Source: Verrucomicrobiota bacterium (GTDB lineage: Bacteria; Verrucomicrobiota; Verrucomicrobiia; Limisphaerales; UBA8199). From it: 42,443 nt of DNA. A program made the position numbers and the translations under genes. Positions 212-19,542 of this stretch are shown here, in pieces. Where the stretch lies: the NCBI GenBank assembly GCA_037130375.1, contig JBAXTC010000003.1, positions 1 through 42,443 of the forward strand. The letters run 5' to 3'. How positions within the stretch are numbered: position 1 is the stretch's first letter; every line of letters starts with the position of its first letter. The notes beneath the pieces are model-generated. The model saw only the letters and a list, made by a program, of their open reading frames with translations. It did not search any database and was not told the DNA's origin.

Positions 212-655
212 ATGAAGATTACGGAAGCACTATTGGCGGAACACATGGTGTTTCACAACCTATTCGACCACATCGATGCGAAGGCCCCGCGGTTGAAGAC
301 GTTGGCAGAGGTCAAATTGTTGGCTGCGTTGATGGAGTCGATGTTGAAGGCGCACTCTGACACGGAGGACGAACTGTTCATCGGCCCGCTGGAGCATTGC
401 TTCGAGCAAATCGGCCAGCGCGACGCCTTTATTCGGGAGCACGAGGAGATTGACGAGAATTTGAAGCAGGTCCAGGAAGCGAAGCAGGTGCGGTTGGCGT
501 GCCAATTATTGCTCGCCGCAGTAGCTTACTCGCGCAAACATTTCGATAAAGAAGAGCGCGTCGTTTTTCCCATGGCCGAACGCATTCTGAAGGGCAAGAC
601 GCTGGCGGCGCTGGGACAAACGTGGTTGGAGCAGAGGATTCGAAAGGCGGTTTGA
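212..655 (+). CDS. Hemerythrin (HHE) domain protein
   Basis: LLAEH, H-x3-EDELF, EHEEI and HFDKEERVVFP metal-binding pattern; 147 aa. Confidence 0.85.
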   Translation: MKITEALLAEHMVFHNLFDHIDAKAPRLKTLAEVKLLAALMESMLKAHSDTEDELFIGPLEHCFEQIGQRDAFIREHEEIDENLKQVQEAKQVRLACQLLLAAVAYSRKHFDKEERVVFPMAERILKGKTLAALGQTWLEQRIRKAV

Positions 656-683
656 TTTGGCGCGATCAGCCATTAGCACTCCG

Positions 684-1775
684 TCAGGCTGTTCCCTCAG
701 CTAAACGGGATGCCGGTTGCGGTTCGATCTGGTCGGAGAAACCGTGCTTGTCCCAGCTTGGGTCCAGGCCCAGGTCCTTGAGCATTTGGAGATCCTTCTC
801 CACCGACTGATTGAGTGTGGTCAGGTAATTCCCAACCATCAGGGCACTGGCGCCGGCCATGAACATGAGGCTTTGGGCGTCCCGCAGGTTCACAGTTCGT
901 CCACCGGCAACCATGATTTCCTGCGTCGGCAGGATAAACCGGAAGCAGGCAATGGACTTAAGAATTTCCAGCGGGGCCAACGGTGCCTGCTCCCCAAAGG
1001 GCGTGCCGGCGATGGGGTTCAGAATGTTGATGGGAACGATGTGCGCGCCGAGTTCCTTCAGGTCGAAGGCCAGGTCGCAGCGGTCCTTTCGGGTTTCTCC
1101 CATACCGAGGATGCCGCCCGAACAGAGCTTAATCCCGGCTTGCTTCAAGTGGTTGATGGTCTGAACCCGCTCCTGATAGGTATGCGAAGTGCAAACCTGC
1201 GGGAAAAATCGCTCCGAGCTTTCGAGATTGTGATTGTAACACTCCAGGCCGGACTCCTTGAGGCGGTCCGCAACCCGCTGATTGCTGATTATGCCAAGGG
1301 ATGCATCTGGCCGTGCGTTGCCGCTTTGTTTCAATTCCTCCAACTGCCGGCAAATCTCTTCCAGCACCGGTCCCTCCTCGAGCCCGCGCCAGGCGGCCAC
1401 CAGGCCAAGCGCGGTGACGCCATTGGTTTTGACTTCGGCGGCCGCGGCGAGGATTGGCTCCCGGTCAACCAGGCCATACCGGGGCGACTCGGTCTGATAG
1501 CCGGCGGATTGAGAGCAGAACCGGCAGTTCTCCGAGCACCCGCCCGCTTTGATATTCACGATCGAGCACAGGTGAATTTTGTTCCCTTTGAAGTGCTCCC
1601 GAATGCGATTGGACCATGACAGCAAATCGACGGTGTCAGCGCCGCATTCCAGGTTGAACAGCCAAAGACCTTCCTCCCTCGTGATGTCGCCGCCGTCCAG
1701 CACTCGCCGGCCAAGTGCCGCAATCCGGTCATGAGGGCCGGCGTCAAATGAATTCGATCTCATGGTTGACAGCAT
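684..1775 (-). CDS. bioB: Biotin synthase (radical SAM); start probably 1775 or 1763 rather than 1856
   Basis: CSENCRFC radical SAM motif, YNHNLE, CSGGILGMGE, VPINIL, GNYLTT. Confidence 0.92.
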   Translation of the reverse strand: MLSTMRSNSFDAGPHDRIAALGRRVLDGGDITREEGLWLFNLECGADTVDLLSWSNRIREHFKGNKIHLCSIVNIKAGGCSENCRFCSQSAGYQTESPRYGLVDREPILAAAAEVKTNGVTALGLVAAWRGLEEGPVLEEICRQLEELKQSGNARPDASLGIISNQRVADRLKESGLECYNHNLESSERFFPQVCTSHTYQERVQTINHLKQAGIKLCSGGILGMGETRKDRCDLAFDLKELGAHIVPINILNPIAGTPFGEQAPLAPLEILKSIACFRFILPTQEIMVAGGRTVNLRDAQSLMFMAGASALMVGNYLTTLNQSVEKDLQMLKDLGLDPSWDKHGFSDQIEPQPASRLAEGTA

Positions 1776-8135: not shown

Positions 8136-9440
8136 TCATTTTGGAGGGATTGACAGCCGGTGGCTCATTCCAATTTTCTTCCGCCACTCGTTGCCGACTC
8201 GAGCCTCCGCCGCAAATTCCGGCCACCGTGCCACTGCCGCCCGCACTTCCTCGATGATCGTTCTGGCCCGGCCCCGTTTCATCAGGGCGGATTTTGCGCA
8301 AGCCTCGAAGTCATCCCTCGTAAAGCCATCCCTTCTGCCATTGAGTGTCATTTGGTGGGTGGCGGTCCACGAACCCGAAGGATTGTAGCTGTAGATCACA
8401 TCAAACGCCGGCGCGAGGGACCAATGGCTCTGTTTGTCCATCAAGAAGGCAATGTTCTTGACGTGATCATCCTGATTTCGGGCGATGATGTTGAAGACCG
8501 TCCGCCGAAACTGTTCTTCGACTGCTGACATCGGCAGTTTGAGTTGGCGGATCGTGAGCATCGCTTGTTCGTAGGCATAGGCGCCGGCTTGGTTGAAATC
8601 AAAATGCGCCATCGCCCCCAGCGACTGCATGTGCAGCTTTTCGCCGCCGTCGAGCCGGTCGAACCGCCGGGTCATGAAATGTCGCCGCCCGTTTTCTTCC
8701 AGAAGCCGGCATTCGTTCATCCTGATTCCCCCCGCCACTGCCATCAGATGATAGGCATACTCAATCGCACCATAGCCCTTCGGGTCTTCCAACTCCTTGT
8801 CCTTGTTGGCGGCGACGCCATCGAACTTCAGCAGCCAGTAATCGAATCCGTCTCCAGCCGTGATCTGGCCGGATCGAACTTCGTTCGTTTCGCGGTTCCA
8901 CGCGATCACGGCCTTGGCCCGTGCTCCCCCGGCGGACGTTCCCACCCGCAGTATATCGTTCAACGCCTTCTCGCGCCCTGCCCCGCCAAAATTGGCTTTC
9001 AATTCGTTGCGGTGAGTTAAGACATCTGACGCGAGCCGGACCAGCGCATCAATCTCGATCTTTGTCGCCTTGCCTGGTTTGGGGCCAAGCACGGGGGCAA
9101 ACTCCAGCGCGCCCATTCCGCGCGTGCCCGTGTAGCACAGGCGCTCGACGGCGCCAAAGCTCTCCGGCGCCCGGCCCTGTGTTGCGAGCCATGCATCGAC
9201 CAGGGCGTTGCCAAACTTGTCCGGCAGCGAATCCGCCAGCAAACCAGGCAGGCCGTGAAAGGTTTTTTGCGGCAGTTCCGGGAATTCATAAACACGATCG
9301 CTCAACGGCATGCTCAGAGGGGCAATCTCGATGCCGCTTCGGGCAAACTCAGGGTCGTATTGGAAAGCGGCATGGTCCCGGCCTTCCTCCATCATAACAG
9401 CCCCGATGGTCCGCCCCCAGAGCTGGACCTTGGCGATCAT
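8136..9440 (-). CDS. hipA: HipA-family kinase toxin
   Basis: N-terminal Couple_hipA region (LADSLPDKFG), SAGGARAK P-loop, WLLKF, RNQDDHVKN, LAPAFD. Confidence 0.92.
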   Translation of the reverse strand: MIAKVQLWGRTIGAVMMEEGRDHAAFQYDPEFARSGIEIAPLSMPLSDRVYEFPELPQKTFHGLPGLLADSLPDKFGNALVDAWLATQGRAPESFGAVERLCYTGTRGMGALEFAPVLGPKPGKATKIEIDALVRLASDVLTHRNELKANFGGAGREKALNDILRVGTSAGGARAKAVIAWNRETNEVRSGQITAGDGFDYWLLKFDGVAANKDKELEDPKGYGAIEYAYHLMAVAGGIRMNECRLLEENGRRHFMTRRFDRLDGGEKLHMQSLGAMAHFDFNQAGAYAYEQAMLTIRQLKLPMSAVEEQFRRTVFNIIARNQDDHVKNIAFLMDKQSHWSLAPAFDVIYSYNPSGSWTATHQMTLNGRRDGFTRDDFEACAKSALMKRGRARTIIEEVRAAVARWPEFAAEARVGNEWRKKIGMSHRLSIPPK

Positions 9441-13718: not shown

Positions 13719-13874
13719 TCAGAGTCGAGCAGGCGGCCCCGGCCGGCCTATTTCGCTGAAGGTGAGGACACTGACAGCCACCGGTTCCGGGGGCCGCGCA
13801 TGAAGCGAGGCCGACAGGTCAAAGCCTTCGCGTTCTTCCGCGATCAGCAATGAACTATCGAGGATCAGCCCCAC
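13719..13874 (-). pseudogene. Truncated VapC/PIN toxin (about 41 homologous aa)
   Basis: GTG start overlapping the antitoxin end; MGLILDSSLLIAEERE...PVAVSVLTFSE then unrelated sequence and TGA after 51 aa. Confidence 0.75.
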
Positions 13875-14131
13875 GGATTCTTGAGGGACTTGAGCGCCTT
13901 GCGGCCCTTGCGCACGGCCGCCGCGAGATCGCGTCGGTCTTCAGCAGGCAAATCAGCATGGGCGAGGTCGTCCGCCAGTTCATGGCTGTTGCACCCCTCA
14001 GTCGAGGCCGGGACGAGGAGGGCGTAGGGGACGCCGAGCTTGACGATGGCAAAGGTTTCCTTCCGGGAATAGACCCGGTTGACACAGTCGCTGAAGCTTT
14101 TCGACGCTTCCGTCACACTCAATGTTTTCAT
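13865..14131 (-). CDS. Phd/YefM-family antitoxin
   Basis: MKTLSVTEASKSFSDCVNRV...FAIVKLGVPYALLVP; candidate promoter TTGACT-16-TAGAGT ending 6 nt before the ATG. Confidence 0.85.
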   Translation of the reverse strand: MKTLSVTEASKSFSDCVNRVYSRKETFAIVKLGVPYALLVPASTEGCNSHELADDLAHADLPAEDRRDLAAAVRKGRKALKSLKNPWG

Positions 14132-14857: not shown

Positions 14858-15232
14858 CTCCAGGAGTGGGGTAAGCATTCCTGGGATACCGCGGTCGCCT
14901 CTCCCATCACCCTGCACGATGTCCAACTGGCCTCCCAGTCCGCTGTCGCTGCCCTCGACGAAAGTTTCTTCCGTGTGCGCTTTGACCGCCTGACCCCGCT
15001 GGAAAAACGTTACCTCCGTGCGATGTCCGAGCTGGGCGCTGGCCCTCATCGCTCCGGCGACATCGCCGACCAACTCCGCCGCGAGGTCACCAACCTCGCC
15101 CCAACGCGCGGCCAGTTGATTTCCAAAGGCATGGTTTGGAGCCCGAGCCACGGCGACACCGCCTTTACCGTCCCGCTCTTCAACGAGTTCATGCGCCGCA
15201 TCATGCCCGGCGATGAATGGAAACAGACGTAA
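14858..15232 (+). pseudogene. 5'-truncated AAA+ ATPase with C-terminal winged helix
   Basis: Homology-like frame starts LQEWGKHSWD right after an in-frame TAA (14855-57), continues FFRVRFDRLTPLEKRYLRAM...FTVPLF; no Walker motifs present. Confidence 0.75.
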
Positions 15233-15233
15233 C

Positions 15234-15655
15234 TTTGACGAGGTGTTCACGGACCGGCTGACAGGGGTGGGCGGGCTGCTGGAAATGCGATTAACGGAGT
15301 CGATCACGTTTTCGGGGATGCGCTGGATCAGGCAGCCGATCCCAGGGACAGCAAAGGCAAAGGGGGAGTGACGATCATGCAGGACGGCGGGATGCAGGAG
15401 GGCAACCGGGCGGTGCGGGGGAGCGTGACGTGCGCGACGCGGGTGGTGGGGGAGAGCTGGGCGCGGCAACAGCGGGCGCTGCTGACGGGGGACGACGACG
15501 GGAATCACCATCCGATGCCGGAACAACTGGATTGCGAGTTTGAATTCGTGCCGCGCCGGGATGGGGTGGCGACGGGGGATGGGCAGAACGTGCGGCTGTT
15601 TCGGGTGGGGTTTGCGTTTGGGGAAACGCTGCCGAACTATCTGCCGAAGTCCTGA
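15234..15655 (+). pseudogene. 5'-truncated, frameshifted gene fragment of unknown function
   Basis: FDEVFTDRLTG...MRWIRQPIPG frame switches near the G run at 15345-47 into DSKGKGGVTIMQDG...LPNYLPKS*; distinctly G-rich composition. Confidence 0.4.
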
Positions 15656-15667
15656 GTACTGGCGTTA

Positions 15668-15695
15668 ACGCGTCCGCTGCACCAAAGGGTTGCGC
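15668..15695 (-). mobile_element. Truncated attC (R''/L'' half only) after cassette 4
   Basis: Minus strand GCGCAAC-cctttggtgcagcggacgcg immediately after the cassette stop codon; no matching L'/R' arm. Confidence 0.5.
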
Positions 15696-15697
15696 CC

Positions 15698-16003
15698 TCA
15701 TATATATAGCCGAATGCCAAAGTATAGCAGGCGCAGGGCGACGGCAGCAAAGACAACTGCAGCCAGCCACAGCACAACCGCGATGATCGGACGCCTTCCG
15801 AATGGTTCAGCAGCAGCCTTGGAGCGCGAGACAAAATAAAAAGGAACTCCGAAGAGAGCAACGAAGATCCCGGCGAAGAACGCAATTGGGCTGTCATACC
15901 GGTGGAGAGCGACGTCCACAAAAGGCATGGCCATGTAAACGAGGCCGCAGGCGACAAAAAGGCAGCAAACCATCCGCAGTGTTTTCGAGAGGTCCAGTGC
16001 CAT
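15698..16003 (-). CDS. Integron cassette 4: small membrane protein (101 aa, about 3 TM)
   Basis: ATG 14 nt after the GTTAAGC core; three hydrophobic segments. Confidence 0.7.
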   Translation of the reverse strand: MALDLSKTLRMVCCLFVACGLVYMAMPFVDVALHRYDSPIAFFAGIFVALFGVPFYFVSRSKAAAEPFGRRPIIAVVLWLAAVVFAAVALRLLYFGIRLYI

Positions 16004-16017
16004 GGGCAAAGTGCGAC

Positions 16018-16069
16018 GCTTAACGACGCGCATCATCGACCCCGCGCCACTGATGCTTGGCATGCAAAC
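16018..16069 (-). mobile_element. Truncated attC (L'/R' half only)
   Basis: Minus strand ...cgcggggtcgatgatgcgcgtc-GTTAAGC; the upstream arm is missing and replaced by the PEP-CTERM coding tail. Confidence 0.6.
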
Positions 16070-16784
16070 AAACAAAAGCTGCGCCAATACAGAGCAATTC
16101 TAACGAGCTAGGCTCTGGAACTGATTGCGGAGAAAACTGAATGCTGTCCAAGGTGAATATGTTCTCGTTAGCTGGAAAGCTGCCGGGTGTGGCTTGGCAC
16201 AAAATCGTGAGGTCAACCGCCGTGCCTGCGTAAGCGCTAATGTCGCCCGCCATCGTCATGACTCCACCGGATGTCGAAATCGGGGAAAGGCCAATGGGTG
16301 TGCCGTTAATAGTGACGATAGGACTCGCCTGTATAACGCCACCTGCAACCGGCGGACTCATCATCAAAAATTGGATGGAATGTGACCCGAGAGGGATCTG
16401 GCCGGTCTGCGAAATAGATGCCGTGTGAAAACAACTGGATGGAGCATCTGCGTATACGTAAAACTGGATGCTGTAACTACCCTGGAGCGGGACATAGCCA
16501 GAATAATATCCGTTGTTCGCGGTGAGCAAGGCAACCGATGTCTCATCAAGTGCGACAGGCGCTCCCCATACCGCTGTGCATACAGTGCCGTCCTCGCGCA
16601 CCGTCCAATACGGTAAAGCACTCGATGCCAAGAGTGCGTCATAAGCATCCCACGGCGTGTAGCCGCTGGGGGCAGAGACTATGGTGGCCTGCTCAAAATT
16701 TAGATTGGCAAATCCCTGACCAAATGCGCTCTGCAACAGAACGCACGAAACAATAACCGACCAAATGATATGCGTATGTTTCAT
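16020..16784 (-). CDS. Integron cassette 3: secreted PEP-CTERM sorting-domain protein
   Basis: Signal peptide, FANLNFE start, C-terminal VPEPSSL plus a hydrophobic stretch; lower GC than the backbone. Confidence 0.85.
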   Translation of the reverse strand: MKHTHIIWSVIVSCVLLQSAFGQGFANLNFEQATIVSAPSGYTPWDAYDALLASSALPYWTVREDGTVCTAVWGAPVALDETSVALLTANNGYYSGYVPLQGSYSIQFYVYADAPSSCFHTASISQTGQIPLGSHSIQFLMMSPPVAGGVIQASPIVTINGTPIGLSPISTSGGVMTMAGDISAYAGTAVDLTILCQATPGSFPANENIFTLDSIQFSPQSVPEPSSLELLCIGAAFVCLHAKHQWRGVDDARR

Positions 16785-16799
16785 AAGACGTGGCCAAGG

Positions 16800-16899
16800 G
16801 TCTAACGGCTAGAGCTCAGGCACGAGGGACCAAAAGGCGTGAACCGCGAAGCGGAACTGAAAGCGCCATCCCGCGTTGCCTGCAGCGATTTTGTTAGGC
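16800..16899 (-). mobile_element. attC site (100 bp)
   Basis: R'' GCCTAAC ... ctgcaggca / tgcctgag ... R' GTTAGAC; imperfect palindrome right after the cassette 2 stop. Confidence 0.88.
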
Positions 16900-16906
16900 T
16901 GCGTTG

Positions 16907-17188
16907 TCATGAGTAAGTGATAACCAAAGACACGACGCCGTAGAGCGCGAAGGCGGGAAGCCAGATGAGCACAAAGGCAATCGGCGATTGCCAAGGCTGG
17001 CCGCGCCAGAAAAGAGGAATGACGGAAACCAATGCAGCAGCGGCAACGGCAGCAGTCAAAATCGCAAGGTGGGCCTCTCGGTCGTAGCTGCTCCATTTTG
17101 ACAGAACCTGCGTGAGTGTCCACAACACCGCGTTCAAGACGACACCCGTGCCGAGTCTCAGCCATCCTTCTGTCTTCGAGCGAGTCAT
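16907..17188 (-). CDS. Integron cassette 2: small membrane protein (93 aa, about 3 TM)
   Basis: ORF fills the space between two attC sites. Confidence 0.75.
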   Translation of the reverse strand: MTRSKTEGWLRLGTGVVLNAVLWTLTQVLSKWSSYDREAHLAILTAAVAAAALVSVIPLFWRGQPWQSPIAFVLIWLPAFALYGVVSLVITYS

Positions 17189-17201
17189 GGCGTGTGAAGC
17201 G

Positions 17202-17297
17202 GCCTAACGCTCCGCCTGAGCTACAGCCGCCACTCCAGAACCTCTGGAGCACCAACGACTGACGTGGCGGCTGTTAGCTCCAGGCGGCTTGTTCGGC
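17202..17297 (-). mobile_element. attC site (96 bp)
   Basis: R'' GCCGAAC, L'' cctggagc, L' gctcagg (extra-helical G), R' GTTAGGC; inner stem acagccgccac/gtggcggctgt. Confidence 0.92.
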
Positions 17298-17304
17298 TGT
17301 GCCT

Positions 17305-17553
17305 TCAAGACTCTTCTGGCCGTTTCCCAAAGAACTCAAGATGGCTGCACTGGCAGCACTGTAGAGCATAACCCTCGATGAACAGGGCTTTGTATCTTGT
17401 GCCAAACGAGCCATGTCCATGCCACTGGAAGCCGCCACTGCTACATTGCGAGCAAATGACCGGCTTGCCACCAGCCTGAAACTGACGTGGGCGGAGGGTC
17501 TCTTTCACTGCTGCTTTTACTCCGCGTTTAATTGCTGTGATGGTCTTGTTCAT
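17305..17553 (-). CDS. Integron cassette 1: small zinc-ribbon protein (82 aa)
   Basis: CSQC...CCQC pair; ATG 15 nt after the attI core; followed by attC. Confidence 0.75.
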   Translation of the reverse strand: MNKTITAIKRGVKAAVKETLRPRQFQAGGKPVICSQCSSGGFQWHGHGSFGTRYKALFIEGYALQCCQCSHLEFFGKRPEES

Positions 17554-17568
17554 AATTGTGTCGAAGTC

Positions 17569-17610
17569 GCCGAACGTTGAATATACGATGACCCGTTCGT
17601 ATATCGAACG
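17569..17610 (-). mobile_element. Putative attI site
   Basis: Core GTTCGGC (17575-17569) preceded by cgtatattcaac with no attC palindrome upstream; 14-bp inverted repeat (12/14); lies between intI remnant and first cassette. Confidence 0.7.
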
Positions 17611-17645
17611 ACGCAGATCCGGCCGGCAAACCCTTTCATGCAATG

Positions 17646-17675
17646 AGGTTACGCTCGTTTAGCTCTCCAAGTCAA
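17646..17675 (-). promoter_or_regulatory. Candidate cassette promoter Pc (TTGACT-18-TAACCT)
   Basis: Sigma70-like hexamers pointing towards attI and the array. Confidence 0.45.
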
Positions 17676-17706
17676 TCCCCCTTTTTAAGCTACCCTACCC
17701 TCCATT

Positions 17707-17853
17707 GGTCGCTACGGCGCCTTTCTGAAGGAGCCGAGGTTCAAAAACCTGACCACCGAAAAGAAGTTAGCCGGCTTCCTCACCCGGTTGGCTCTCTCGG
17801 GCGTCTCAGCCTCCACGCAAAACCAGGCCTTCAATGCCTTGCTTTGCTTTTAA
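17707..17853 (+). pseudogene. intI: Integron integrase remnant (N-terminal SAM-like domain only)
   Basis: Manual translation GRYGAFLKEPRFKNLTTEKKLAGFLTRLALSGVSASTQNQAFNALLCF*; VSASTQNQA(F/L)NAL is the IntI N-terminal signature; divergent from the cassettes; start and catalytic domain missing. Confidence 0.85.
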
Positions 17854-18330
17854 TTAGTCGCTTTTCCCGACGGTGGAAAAGGCGCGGCTCTGGGCCTCGC
17901 GGAAGTTGGTGAGGAAGAGGGTGTTGTCCGCGACGGCTTTTTCGATGAGCTGCTTGAGCAGGAACAGTTCGGAACTGTTGATGACAGCATGGACGCTCTG
18001 CTGAAAGGCCTGCATCGGGGTGAAGGTCTGGAACGTTTCGCCGAAGAGAATGATCGTGGCATGGCGGCGCTCGTTCATGGGCATCTGCTGGAGCGCTTGC
18101 AAGGTCAGGTTTTCGCTCGGGTTGTTGGCCGCAAACAGCTCCTCCAGGATCGCAACCTGGTAGCGGACCTGGCTGAACCGAATCAGGAAGTCCGAGTGGG
18201 TTGCCGCGGTGTGGACTTTATAGCCCAGCTCATTGAGCGCCGCCCGGGCAGCTTCCAGCCAATCCGGCGTCGAGAAAGCGATCAGGGCGGGCTTGTCGTT
18301 GGCGCTGACGAATTCAAATTGCGTCGTCAT
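17854..18330 (-). CDS. Hypothetical protein with atypical receiver-like fold, coupled to pilT/pilU
   Basis: 158 aa ORF 6 nt downstream of pilU; alpha/beta pattern LNELGYKVHTA...YQVAILEE. Confidence 0.7.
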   Translation of the reverse strand: MTTQFEFVSANDKPALIAFSTPDWLEAARAALNELGYKVHTAATHSDFLIRFSQVRYQVAILEELFAANNPSENLTLQALQQMPMNERRHATIILFGETFQTFTPMQAFQQSVHAVINSSELFLLKQLIEKAVADNTLFLTNFREAQSRAFSTVGKSD

Positions 18331-18336
18331 GGGTGA

Positions 18337-19542
18337 TCACTTGAGTTTGAGCATCGGGGGCGCCGCCGGCGCGCCTGTTCGCGCGGCGTTCTGCATGGCC
18401 TTCATGCGCAGCGAGTGCATGCTGTGGGTGGATTCGCCGCGCGTTTTCTTGATGTTGTCAATGCCGCGCGTGACCGGCCCGCGTTTGGTGCAGTAGAGTG
18501 TCGCGGTGTCCTCGGTGATCTTCCCTTGTTCGTAGGCTTCCAGCGCCGAGAAATCGAAGGTCCGCCATCCGAATGACTGGCTGGACTCGATGATTTCGTA
18601 AAAGCTTTTGCCTTCGGTTTCGCCAAGGCGGATGCTTTCCTGGGTCCGGAGATTCGAGCCCATGATTTCGAGCAGCGCGTAGCGGCCGCCACCAACCCTC
18701 GGGACGAGCCGCTGGCTGACGACCCATCGCAAGGTGTCGGCCAGCCGAGCGCGAACTTGTTCCTGTTCCTCGGTTTCAAACATGCCGAGGATACGATTGA
18801 TGGTCTGGCCGGCGTCTATGGTGTGCAGCGTGCTGAGCACTAGATGGCCGGTTTCCGCCGCGCTCAGGGCAATCTTGATGGTTTCACGGTCGCGCATTTC
18901 GCCGACGAGAATGACCTTGGGCGCCTGGCGCAGGGCGGCGCGCAAACCGTTGGAGAAGGTGTCGAAATCCGTGCCCAGTTCCCGCTGGTTGAACGTGGCC
19001 ACATCATGATGATGAACAAACTCAACCGGATCCTCGAGCGTGATGATGTGAACCGGCTTGGTGCGCCCGATCTCATTGAGCACAGCGGCCAGGGTGGTCG
19101 ATTTGCCGGAACCGGTGGCGCCGGTGACGAGCACCAAACCGGTTTTTTCCAGGGGTGTCTGCTTGATAATCTCCGGGAAGTGGAGCGATTCGAGGGTCGG
19201 GATGACCGTGTTGAGCTTGCGTAGAACGATCGAAAAATTGCCGCGCTGGGCGAAGATGCTGATACGAAAACGCGCCTTATCGGCCAGCGTGTAAGCGGTG
19301 TCGCAGGAACCGCGGCGAAGCAAATCCCCGATGTGCCAGAGGTTGTCGCCGATCAGATTGAGCGCGATCATCTCGGTCTGGAACGGAGTGAGTTTCTCGA
19401 TGGGCGGCTCGCAGACAACCGGTTTCAGCTCGCCAAAGGATTCGACCTGCAACGATTTATCAACGGTGAACAGCAGGTCGGATACCTCCGGCTGCGAGTC
19501 CAGCATCGTCGTCAGAATGTAGTCAAGCTCGGGTCGGCGCAT
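18337..19542 (-). CDS. pilU: PilT/PilU-family type IV pilus ATPase (PilU-like)
   Basis: GATGSGKS, ITLEDPVE, ILVGEMRD, GHLVLSTLH; lacks AIRNLIRE. Confidence 0.8.
   Translation of the reverse strand: MRRPELDYILTTMLDSQPEVSDLLFTVDKSLQVESFGELKPVVCEPPIEKLTPFQTEMIALNLIGDNLWHIGDLLRRGSCDTAYTLADKARFRISIFAQRGNFSIVLRKLNTVIPTLESLHFPEIIKQTPLEKTGLVLVTGATGSGKSTTLAAVLNEIGRTKPVHIITLEDPVEFVHHHDVATFNQRELGTDFDTFSNGLRAALRQAPKVILVGEMRDRETIKIALSAAETGHLVLSTLHTIDAGQTINRILGMFETEEQEQVRARLADTLRWVVSQRLVPRVGGGRYALLEIMGSNLRTQESIRLGETEGKSFYEIIESSQSFGWRTFDFSALEAYEQGKITEDTATLYCTKRGPVTRGIDNIKKTRGESTHSMHSLRMKAMQNAARTGAPAAPPMLKLK

Follow-up and report, generated by a model that had tools for sequence, protein, structure and literature searches.

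The stretch of DNA analysed here, 42,443 nucleotides (nt) of a Verrucomicrobiota bacterium of the order Limisphaerales (assembly GCA_037130375.1, contig JBAXTC010000003.1), is referred to throughout as the window, and it holds at 15668–17853 what is very probably a degraded chromosomal integron. In integrons, a circular cassette is joined to attI by the integrase IntI, which recombines attI with the bottom strand of the cassette's attC site in its folded form; the cut between G and TT places each new cassette beside attI, where a promoter upstream of it reads into the array. At this locus a remnant of the integrase gene (intI) on the plus strand lies beside an attI site, which is joined on its other side to a minus-strand array of two cassettes, each ending in an attC site, and a terminal segment with two open reading frames (ORFs). 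A preliminary description of this DNA had proposed a relic integron here and was essentially right. Within its 8.34-Mb bin (1,244 contigs, 93% complete, 5% contaminated) the window is called contig C468, and the bin's other contigs are designated below in the same manner.

An integrase remnant, its attI site and the attached array

The intI remnant (17689–17853, plus strand) comprises 54 open codons without an ATG, GTG or TTG start; the frame, 17689–17850, reads ...GVSASTQNQAFNALLCF, and its IntI-like part covers 17701–17850, about 50 codons, to which the 48 codons first reported are an approximation. As had been observed from the outset, its stop codon (TAA, 17851–17853) directly abuts the TAA (17854–17856) of a conserved core gene on the minus strand at 17854–18330. 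The peptide carries an N-terminal SAM-like domain of the IntI type, matching Pfam PF13495 (E = 1.8e-5, profile positions 26–74 of 85) and the integron integrase model TIGR02249 (E = 1.2e-4, positions 26–74 of 315), and the identification as an IntI fragment, which the preliminary description had staked on such a comparison with profile models, is thereby borne out. The TIGR02249 match amounts to 17.7 bits against a cut-off of 265; the catalytic domain and the IntI-specific extra segment are entirely absent, so that the window holds no full-length functional intI with the IntI-specific insertion and catalytic residues, and the IntI lineage of the peptide is judged from its N-terminus only.

That lineage can be followed through a longer copy on contig C946, to which the remnant is 96% identical in DNA. 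The C946 copy keeps its start codon and model positions 3–89, scoring 52.1 bits with TIGR02249 vs. 21.9 with XerD, and full-length proteins from public metagenomes are 71–77% identical to its N-terminus. One of these, P0041, passes TIGR02249 (271.3 bits vs. the cut-off of 265) and is 65% identical in amino acids to the window peptide over the aligned part. Alignment with C946 reveals a deletion scar at 17682–17704, where about 140 nt of the C946 sequence are gone, namely the upstream region and the beginning of intI from its start codon through the first ~29 codons; everything beyond codon ~74 is missing from the window as well. Since the full-length IntI proteins of related Limisphaerales integrons (loci L016–L021 and L023; 431–471 bits) have N-termini only 41–58% identical to the relic, the latter is assigned to a different integrase lineage, with P0041 as its nearest match. 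The search for close intact relatives of this lineage was negative: identities did not exceed 48% in five chosen genomes of the family and 54% among 400 genomes sampled from the order. Within the 93%-complete bin the search for an intact intI, likewise proposed beforehand, returned 28 TIGR02249 matches, none of which reaches the cut-off.

The attI site extends from 17575 to about 17681, and its junction with the array is proven by comparison with the paralogous platform on C946, which confirms that attI is present, as first claimed. In a BLAST search of 15000–19000 against the bin, C946 shares 15497–15667 (94%), 17573–17681 (94%) and 17705–17852 (96%) with the window; the stretch separating the first two blocks is unrelated to that of the window and measures 882 nt in C946 vs. 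1,905 in the window. The identity of the window attI to C946 (94%), C195 (89%) and C688 (91%) begins at 17573–17592 and ends on the cassette side. On the cassette strand, window and C946 are alike to ...TATATTCA(A/T)C-G and then continue with TTCGGC in the window and TTAGCC in C946, whereas C195 continues with TTAAGC. G|TT is the crossover point of attI × attC recombination, here between G (17575) and T (17574), and the four variable junction bases complement the R'' of the first attC, which is GCCGAAC in the window and GGCTAAC in C946, where the insert holds its own attC (39.5 bits; junction GTTAGCC). The second C946 breakpoint, 15667/8, coincides with the terminal end of the array. Thus, attI lies next to intI with its junction at G|TT, and a cassette match from another context, described below, also ends at 17577. 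An imperfect inverted repeat in attI (17575–17588 and 17597–17610) ends at the crossover and is the likely pair of integrase-binding boxes.

For the attC sites, a covariance model (R1) was built from an alignment of 29 attC sites on nine other contigs of the genome, leaving out the window. The alignment contains 19 pairs, 14 of them with compensatory changes, and has the classical attC shape, with paired AAC/GTT cores, an unpaired spacer and a second helix with a bulged A. Run unfiltered on both strands of the whole window, R1 located two minus-strand sites, attC1 at 17202–17297 (R'' GCCGAAC ... R' GTTAGGC; 63.2 bits, E = 2.9e-14) and attC2 at 16800–16899 (R'' GCCTAAC ... R' GTTAGAC; 57.8 bits, E = 7.4e-13), exactly where they had originally been placed. 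Each matches all 94 positions of the model, and read on the minus strand both have their bulges on the 5' arm, a feature shared by all 29 training sites. The third-best hit was the plus strand of attC1 (18.3 bits), and the remaining 22 all had E ≥ 0.69. In relatives' loci outside the training set, R1 found attC sites upstream of an intact intI and on the opposite strand in seven of seven cases; sites beside intact integrases score 52–69 bits, a range that includes both window sites, and in 1,078,056 bases of 80 pilT-syntenic loci there was no hit at E ≤ 0.001. An earlier nhmmer profile, made from 12 hairpins on contigs C412 and C275, had marked 47 places genome-wide at E ≤ 1 and, in the window, only 17297–17202 (E = 9.6e-10) and 16899–16801 (E = 6.7e-7). 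This profile and R1 replaced a naive genome-wide scan for boxes plus folding, whose 1,321 places are mostly false in so GC-rich a genome. Further, attC1 is 80% identical to an attC on C412, and as single-stranded DNA it folds with z = −4.75, none of 200 shuffles being as stable. In Rfam 15 no family reached the gathering threshold anywhere in the window, and permissive mode gave only chance microRNA-type hits on the attC1 hairpin.

The order of the boxes carries its own signature. GTTCGGC at the start of cassette 1 (17575→17569, minus strand) pairs with the R'' of attC1, GCCGAAC, and the R' of attC1, GTTAGGC, pairs with the R'' of attC2, GCCTAAC. This core complementarity, noted in the preliminary description, is found as exact complements in 13 of the 23 neighbouring pairs in the genome's arrays against 120 of 841 (14%) of all combinations, and exceeds chance.

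Cassette 1 (17208–17574, minus strand) consists of a Cys-rich ORF of 82 amino acids (aa; 17305–17553) and attC1. Queried with one extra N-terminal residue, its protein has 21 homologues in 5.8 billion protein clusters, none with a Pfam domain. A 1,481-nt contig from an activated-sludge RNA library (X19) matches only 17206–17577, with 16 differences (~96% identity) and unlike flanks on both sides, and cassette 1 is therefore a discrete unit in another context. It is the only part of the array seen in differing contexts; cassette 2 and the terminal segment were not found elsewhere by BLAST of the bin or in the 80 pilT-syntenic related loci. Cassette 2 (16806–17207, minus strand) combines attC2 with a membrane-like 93-aa ORF (16907–17188) that has three hydrophobic stretches and no family match at a significant E in Pfam and TIGR scans.

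Because there are only two attC sites and none in or after the remainder, we count the array as two cassettes and one fixed terminal segment, in place of the four cassettes initially described. The terminal segment (15669–16805, minus strand; 1,137 nt), which would be a third cassette by its position only, since it has no proper attC, begins with TTAGAC after attC2 and contains two tightly packed ORFs, one of 254 aa (16020–16784) with a PEP-CTERM-like C-terminus (PF07589, E = 0.0013, below the cut-off) and a membrane-like one of 101 aa (15698–16003) beginning 14 nt past it. R1 scores no attC between or after these ORFs, and the boxes that the chain rule predicts are lacking. At 15670–15695 (minus strand), abutting the terminal junction, lies a possible half attC, an R''–L'' arm that starts with GCGCAAC and whose 3' half is gone; a targeted search of 231 nt gave here a weak, truncated match of 26 nt (R1 positions 1–27 of 94; 12 bits; E = 0.0028) that the whole-window run did not find, and it weakly suggests that the junction once held an attC which lost its 3' half. 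A candidate internal third attC (16172→16096, AGCTAAC...GTTAGAA) was rejected as lying inside the PEP-CTERM coding part with no R1 score, as were a candidate R' box (GTTAAGC, 16024→16018) with no attC body and a proposed homology between the cassette-2 ORF and the 101-aa ORF (E = 0.06). Beyond the junction, the conserved distal flank (15497–15667, plus strand; 94% identical to C946:2096–1926) holds the last ~46 codons and the stop of a larger gene, and the 46-aa peptide corresponds to the C-terminus of a 955-aa open frame in a genome of the same genus (G002; 41% identity, E = 1e-4).

Paralogous platforms, genomic setting and public sequencing runs

Genome-wide, about 45 attC sites are present, and this attI and relics of intI occur four times each. 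The attI copies, in the window and on C946, C195 and C688 (the last keeping 17592–17671 only), are 89–94% identical, and the cassettes beside attI are entirely different in the window, C946 and C195. Outside the module the flanks are unique in the bin, with no second copy of 15000–15496 or 17853–18700. Besides the window, pieces of intI remain on C946 (positions 3–89, perhaps with a dozen C-terminal codons), C275 (3–144) and C106 (76–291); the last is frameshifted, has lost codons 1–75 and is fused to unrelated sequence ahead of the catalytic tyrosine, whose region is replaced. A public protein 98% identical to the C946 allele shows the same internal loss. Among the three genomes of the same genus, the platform gave a single match, of 35 nt, in one. 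In relatives, 18 of 40 have an integrase above the TIGR02249 cut-off, so that integrons count as common in this family.

The window and C946 copies share one ancestral locus, as indicated by the same 171-nt gene remnant at their distal ends. Based on the entirely different cassettes and the differing intI lesions, we infer cassette turnover after duplication, followed by independent decay. C688 and C195 have the same sequence on the integrase side of attI. On C195, positions 413–1243 (minus strand) comprise a cassette, an attC (1243→1142), an AbiEi-like ORF (1025→618), attI (520→413) and a further cassette, with no intI, and the embedding of attI in this array suggests recombination between platforms. 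HicB- and HicA-like ORFs, named by eye from their translations, lie directly past the truncated intI on C946 (117–578).

The window is chromosomal, with gyrA and gyrB at 2.5–7.7 kb, two pilT-type ATPase genes at 18.3–20.6 kb and, beyond them, dnaJ and a sigma-70 gene; the closest pilT loci among named genomes are all from Verrucomicrobiota, mostly Limisphaerales, Pedosphaera or 'subdivision 3'. The 158-aa gene whose stop abuts the intI relic (minus strand, 17854–18330) is intact and follows pilT in 79 of 80 related loci. Downstream of its stop the sequence is different in each of ten relatives inspected, which places the intI relic exactly at a synteny break.

Words sampled from 15400–18100 are present at 75–95% in 17 lake-water or freshwater metagenome runs (2018–2020), one of which may be the source sample. 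DNA contigs from run X1 cover 15640–17294 and 17265–17674 and a contig from run X17 covers 17717–18600, with at most one difference each, and no joint that removes a cassette occurs in the X1 or X17 contigs. A joint 15667→17573 in one X17 contig was considered as an empty attI and rejected, as the sequence between is not known and the contig fits a C946-type locus. In X1 the summed depth is 97 over attI vs. 27 over the array, which fits several attI copies. An RNA library from freshwater (X18) yielded a 223-nt contig without differences from 17209–17426, a hint, not proof, of transcription.

Several further observations concern the surroundings and the rest of the genome. The ~10 kb separating gyrB from the integron include a HipA-type kinase, a Phd/YefM-like antitoxin (sub-threshold) and an ABC transporter (window 8136–9440 and 13865–14131), none of which is near the pilT cluster in the 80 related loci, and the stretch looks like a variable island. 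Short X1 and X17 contigs match only the 75-nt end of the 158-aa gene (17853–17928), with unlike sequence on both sides, and probably come from a related population with other neighbours. Two further integron relics, of other lineages, are found at C106 1–1600 (an attC, a 186-aa cassette ORF and a junction G|TTAGAC) and C275 11347–13333 (intI codons 3–144, including a TGA, with three attC sites on the opposite strand). Two identical attC sites 281 nt apart on C462 (8110–8202 and 8391–8483) are a recent tandem duplication of a very short cassette. An unrelated family of 75–130-nt palindromic repeats with ends TATAAACATG...CATGTTTATA occurs on C410, C442, C701, C768 and C817 and at about 1085–1100 on C195.

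Decay of the integrase and alternative readings

Cumulatively, these data leave us highly confident that the locus is a sedentary chromosomal integron in which decay has left only a stump of the integrase gene. Several points weigh against this reading. On its own, attC2 folds no better than its shuffles (z = −0.3) and is recognised by its model score; the terminal segment is without a proper attC; and the Pc-like promoter of the preliminary description is a consensus-level match, the candidate site (TCGATA-16-TATATT, 17607→17580, minus strand), conserved in C946, agreeing with the hexamer consensus at 9 of 12 positions; a scan of the region found two such sites vs. 1.2 expected in shuffles, which is no better than chance. 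Contigs from RNA libraries are no proof of transcription. The bin is incomplete; an intact intI could be missing from the assembly, and co-binned strains are in principle a possible source of the four platform copies.

On this reading, the locus would no longer be able to shuffle itself. Cassettes 1 and 2, whose attC sites are structurally intact, would still be excisable by a compatible IntI acting in trans; the terminal two-gene segment would be fixed, its attC being missing or halved; and the cassette genes, if expressed, would be read from a promoter inside attI. The preliminary description had likewise held the array to be frozen unless an IntI acts in trans, which fits both the absence of any above-cut-off TIGR02249 match and the recurrence of the same array in the 17 public runs.

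In a different reading the locus is not frozen but remains one of several attI docking sites that an intact integrase, unassembled in this genome or brought in on mobile elements, still serves in trans. The wholly different cassettes adjoining attI copies of 89–94% identity (window, C946 and C195) speak for such servicing, as do the scores of both attC sites within the range seen beside intact integrases, the above-cut-off integrases in 18 of 40 relatives and a bin that is incomplete and breaks at repeats. Its own genome, however, has no above-cut-off match, and the four intI copies are each broken differently; X1 and X17 contain no alternative cassette joints, word content is the same across the 17 runs of 2018–2020, the public protein 98% identical to the C946 allele has the same internal loss, and the closest integrase N-termini are at most 54% identical among the 400 sampled genomes of the order. 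On balance we consider continued servicing in trans unlikely. It is improbable, too, that conserved attI–promoter docking sites scattered over the chromosome form a distributed integron, without an integrase in cis and kept because a single IntI in trans, either unassembled or imported from time to time, still loads and unloads cassettes at all of them; were this true, cassette capture would be uncoupled from the location of the integrase.

The multi-copy platform might also be an artefact of binning or assembly, with copies from different strains or species and chimeric junctions in the window, and the 5% contamination, the 1,244 contigs and an attI depth three to four times that of the array, which would fit several organisms as well, are in keeping with this. 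Against it, no second copy of the module's outer flanks exists in the bin, independent contigs bridge 15640–17294 and 17265–17674 (X1) and 17717–18600 (X17), and the 158-aa gene, itself intact, keeps its synteny with pilT in 79 of 80 loci. We hold such an artefact to be very unlikely; an origin of the copies in different strains would in any case leave the interpretation of the window as an integron intact. That the locus is no integron, its hairpins being ordinary repeated palindromes or terminators and its peptide a chance frame, would agree with the lack of an Rfam family hit and with the presence of another, unrelated palindromic repeat family in the genome. This reading, which retains practically no probability, is already refuted by the strand-specific covariance scores, the covariation in 14 of 19 pairs, the seven of seven loci with an intact intI, the exact G|TT breakpoints and the integrase matches of the peptide.

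Relation to known integron systems

The decayed integron described here is real and well delimited but ordinary, being of a kind already known, and it leaves the understanding of integron function unchanged. Sedentary chromosomal integrons with inactivated integrases are known from Xanthomonas, and, as there, the window element is chromosomal beside core genes, has strain-specific cassettes of no known function and an integrase destroyed by deletions. It differs in belonging to the Verrucomicrobiota, in having several paralogous platforms in one genome rather than one conserved locus, and in its much shorter array. With the complete Limisphaerales integrons mentioned above it shares the divergent layout, with intI on one strand and attC sites of the same structural family upstream on the other; those integrons, however, have a full-length IntI, whereas the window has a stump of another lineage. 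We found no description of multiple paralogous attI platforms in Limisphaerales in the literature, in which no search was aimed at them. The Verrucomicrobiota are listed among the integron-bearing phyla by Cury et al. (2016; PMC4889954) and Ghaly et al. (2021), and the locus adds a case from a phylum whose integrons are listed but little described.

In current terms, the locus is a CALIN, a cluster of attC sites lacking an integron integrase as Cury et al. (2016; PMC4889954) define it, with a recognisable attI and intI stump. Its two attC sites, both on the minus strand and 303 nt apart, lie well within 4 kb of each other, there is no intact intI in the window, and its non-resistance cassettes have no known function. 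Since the published definition would list the element as a CALIN, the word 'hidden' in the preliminary description holds for the intI stump and not for the rest. In the same study, intI pseudogenes were recognisable near only 15 of 279 CALIN in a screen that used C-terminal profiles (Cury et al. 2016; PMC4889954); such profiles would miss the N-terminal stump of the window, and screens relying on the integrase C-terminus miss relics of this sort. The locus also provides direct evidence from nature that a cassette of no known function moves as a unit, here between the chromosome of a lake Verrucomicrobiota and an array in an activated-sludge community. What distinguishes it from other CALIN is that its origin is visible, and with attI, the integrase stump and the deletion scar still readable it represents a clean, coordinate-level case of a CALIN arising from a complete integron.

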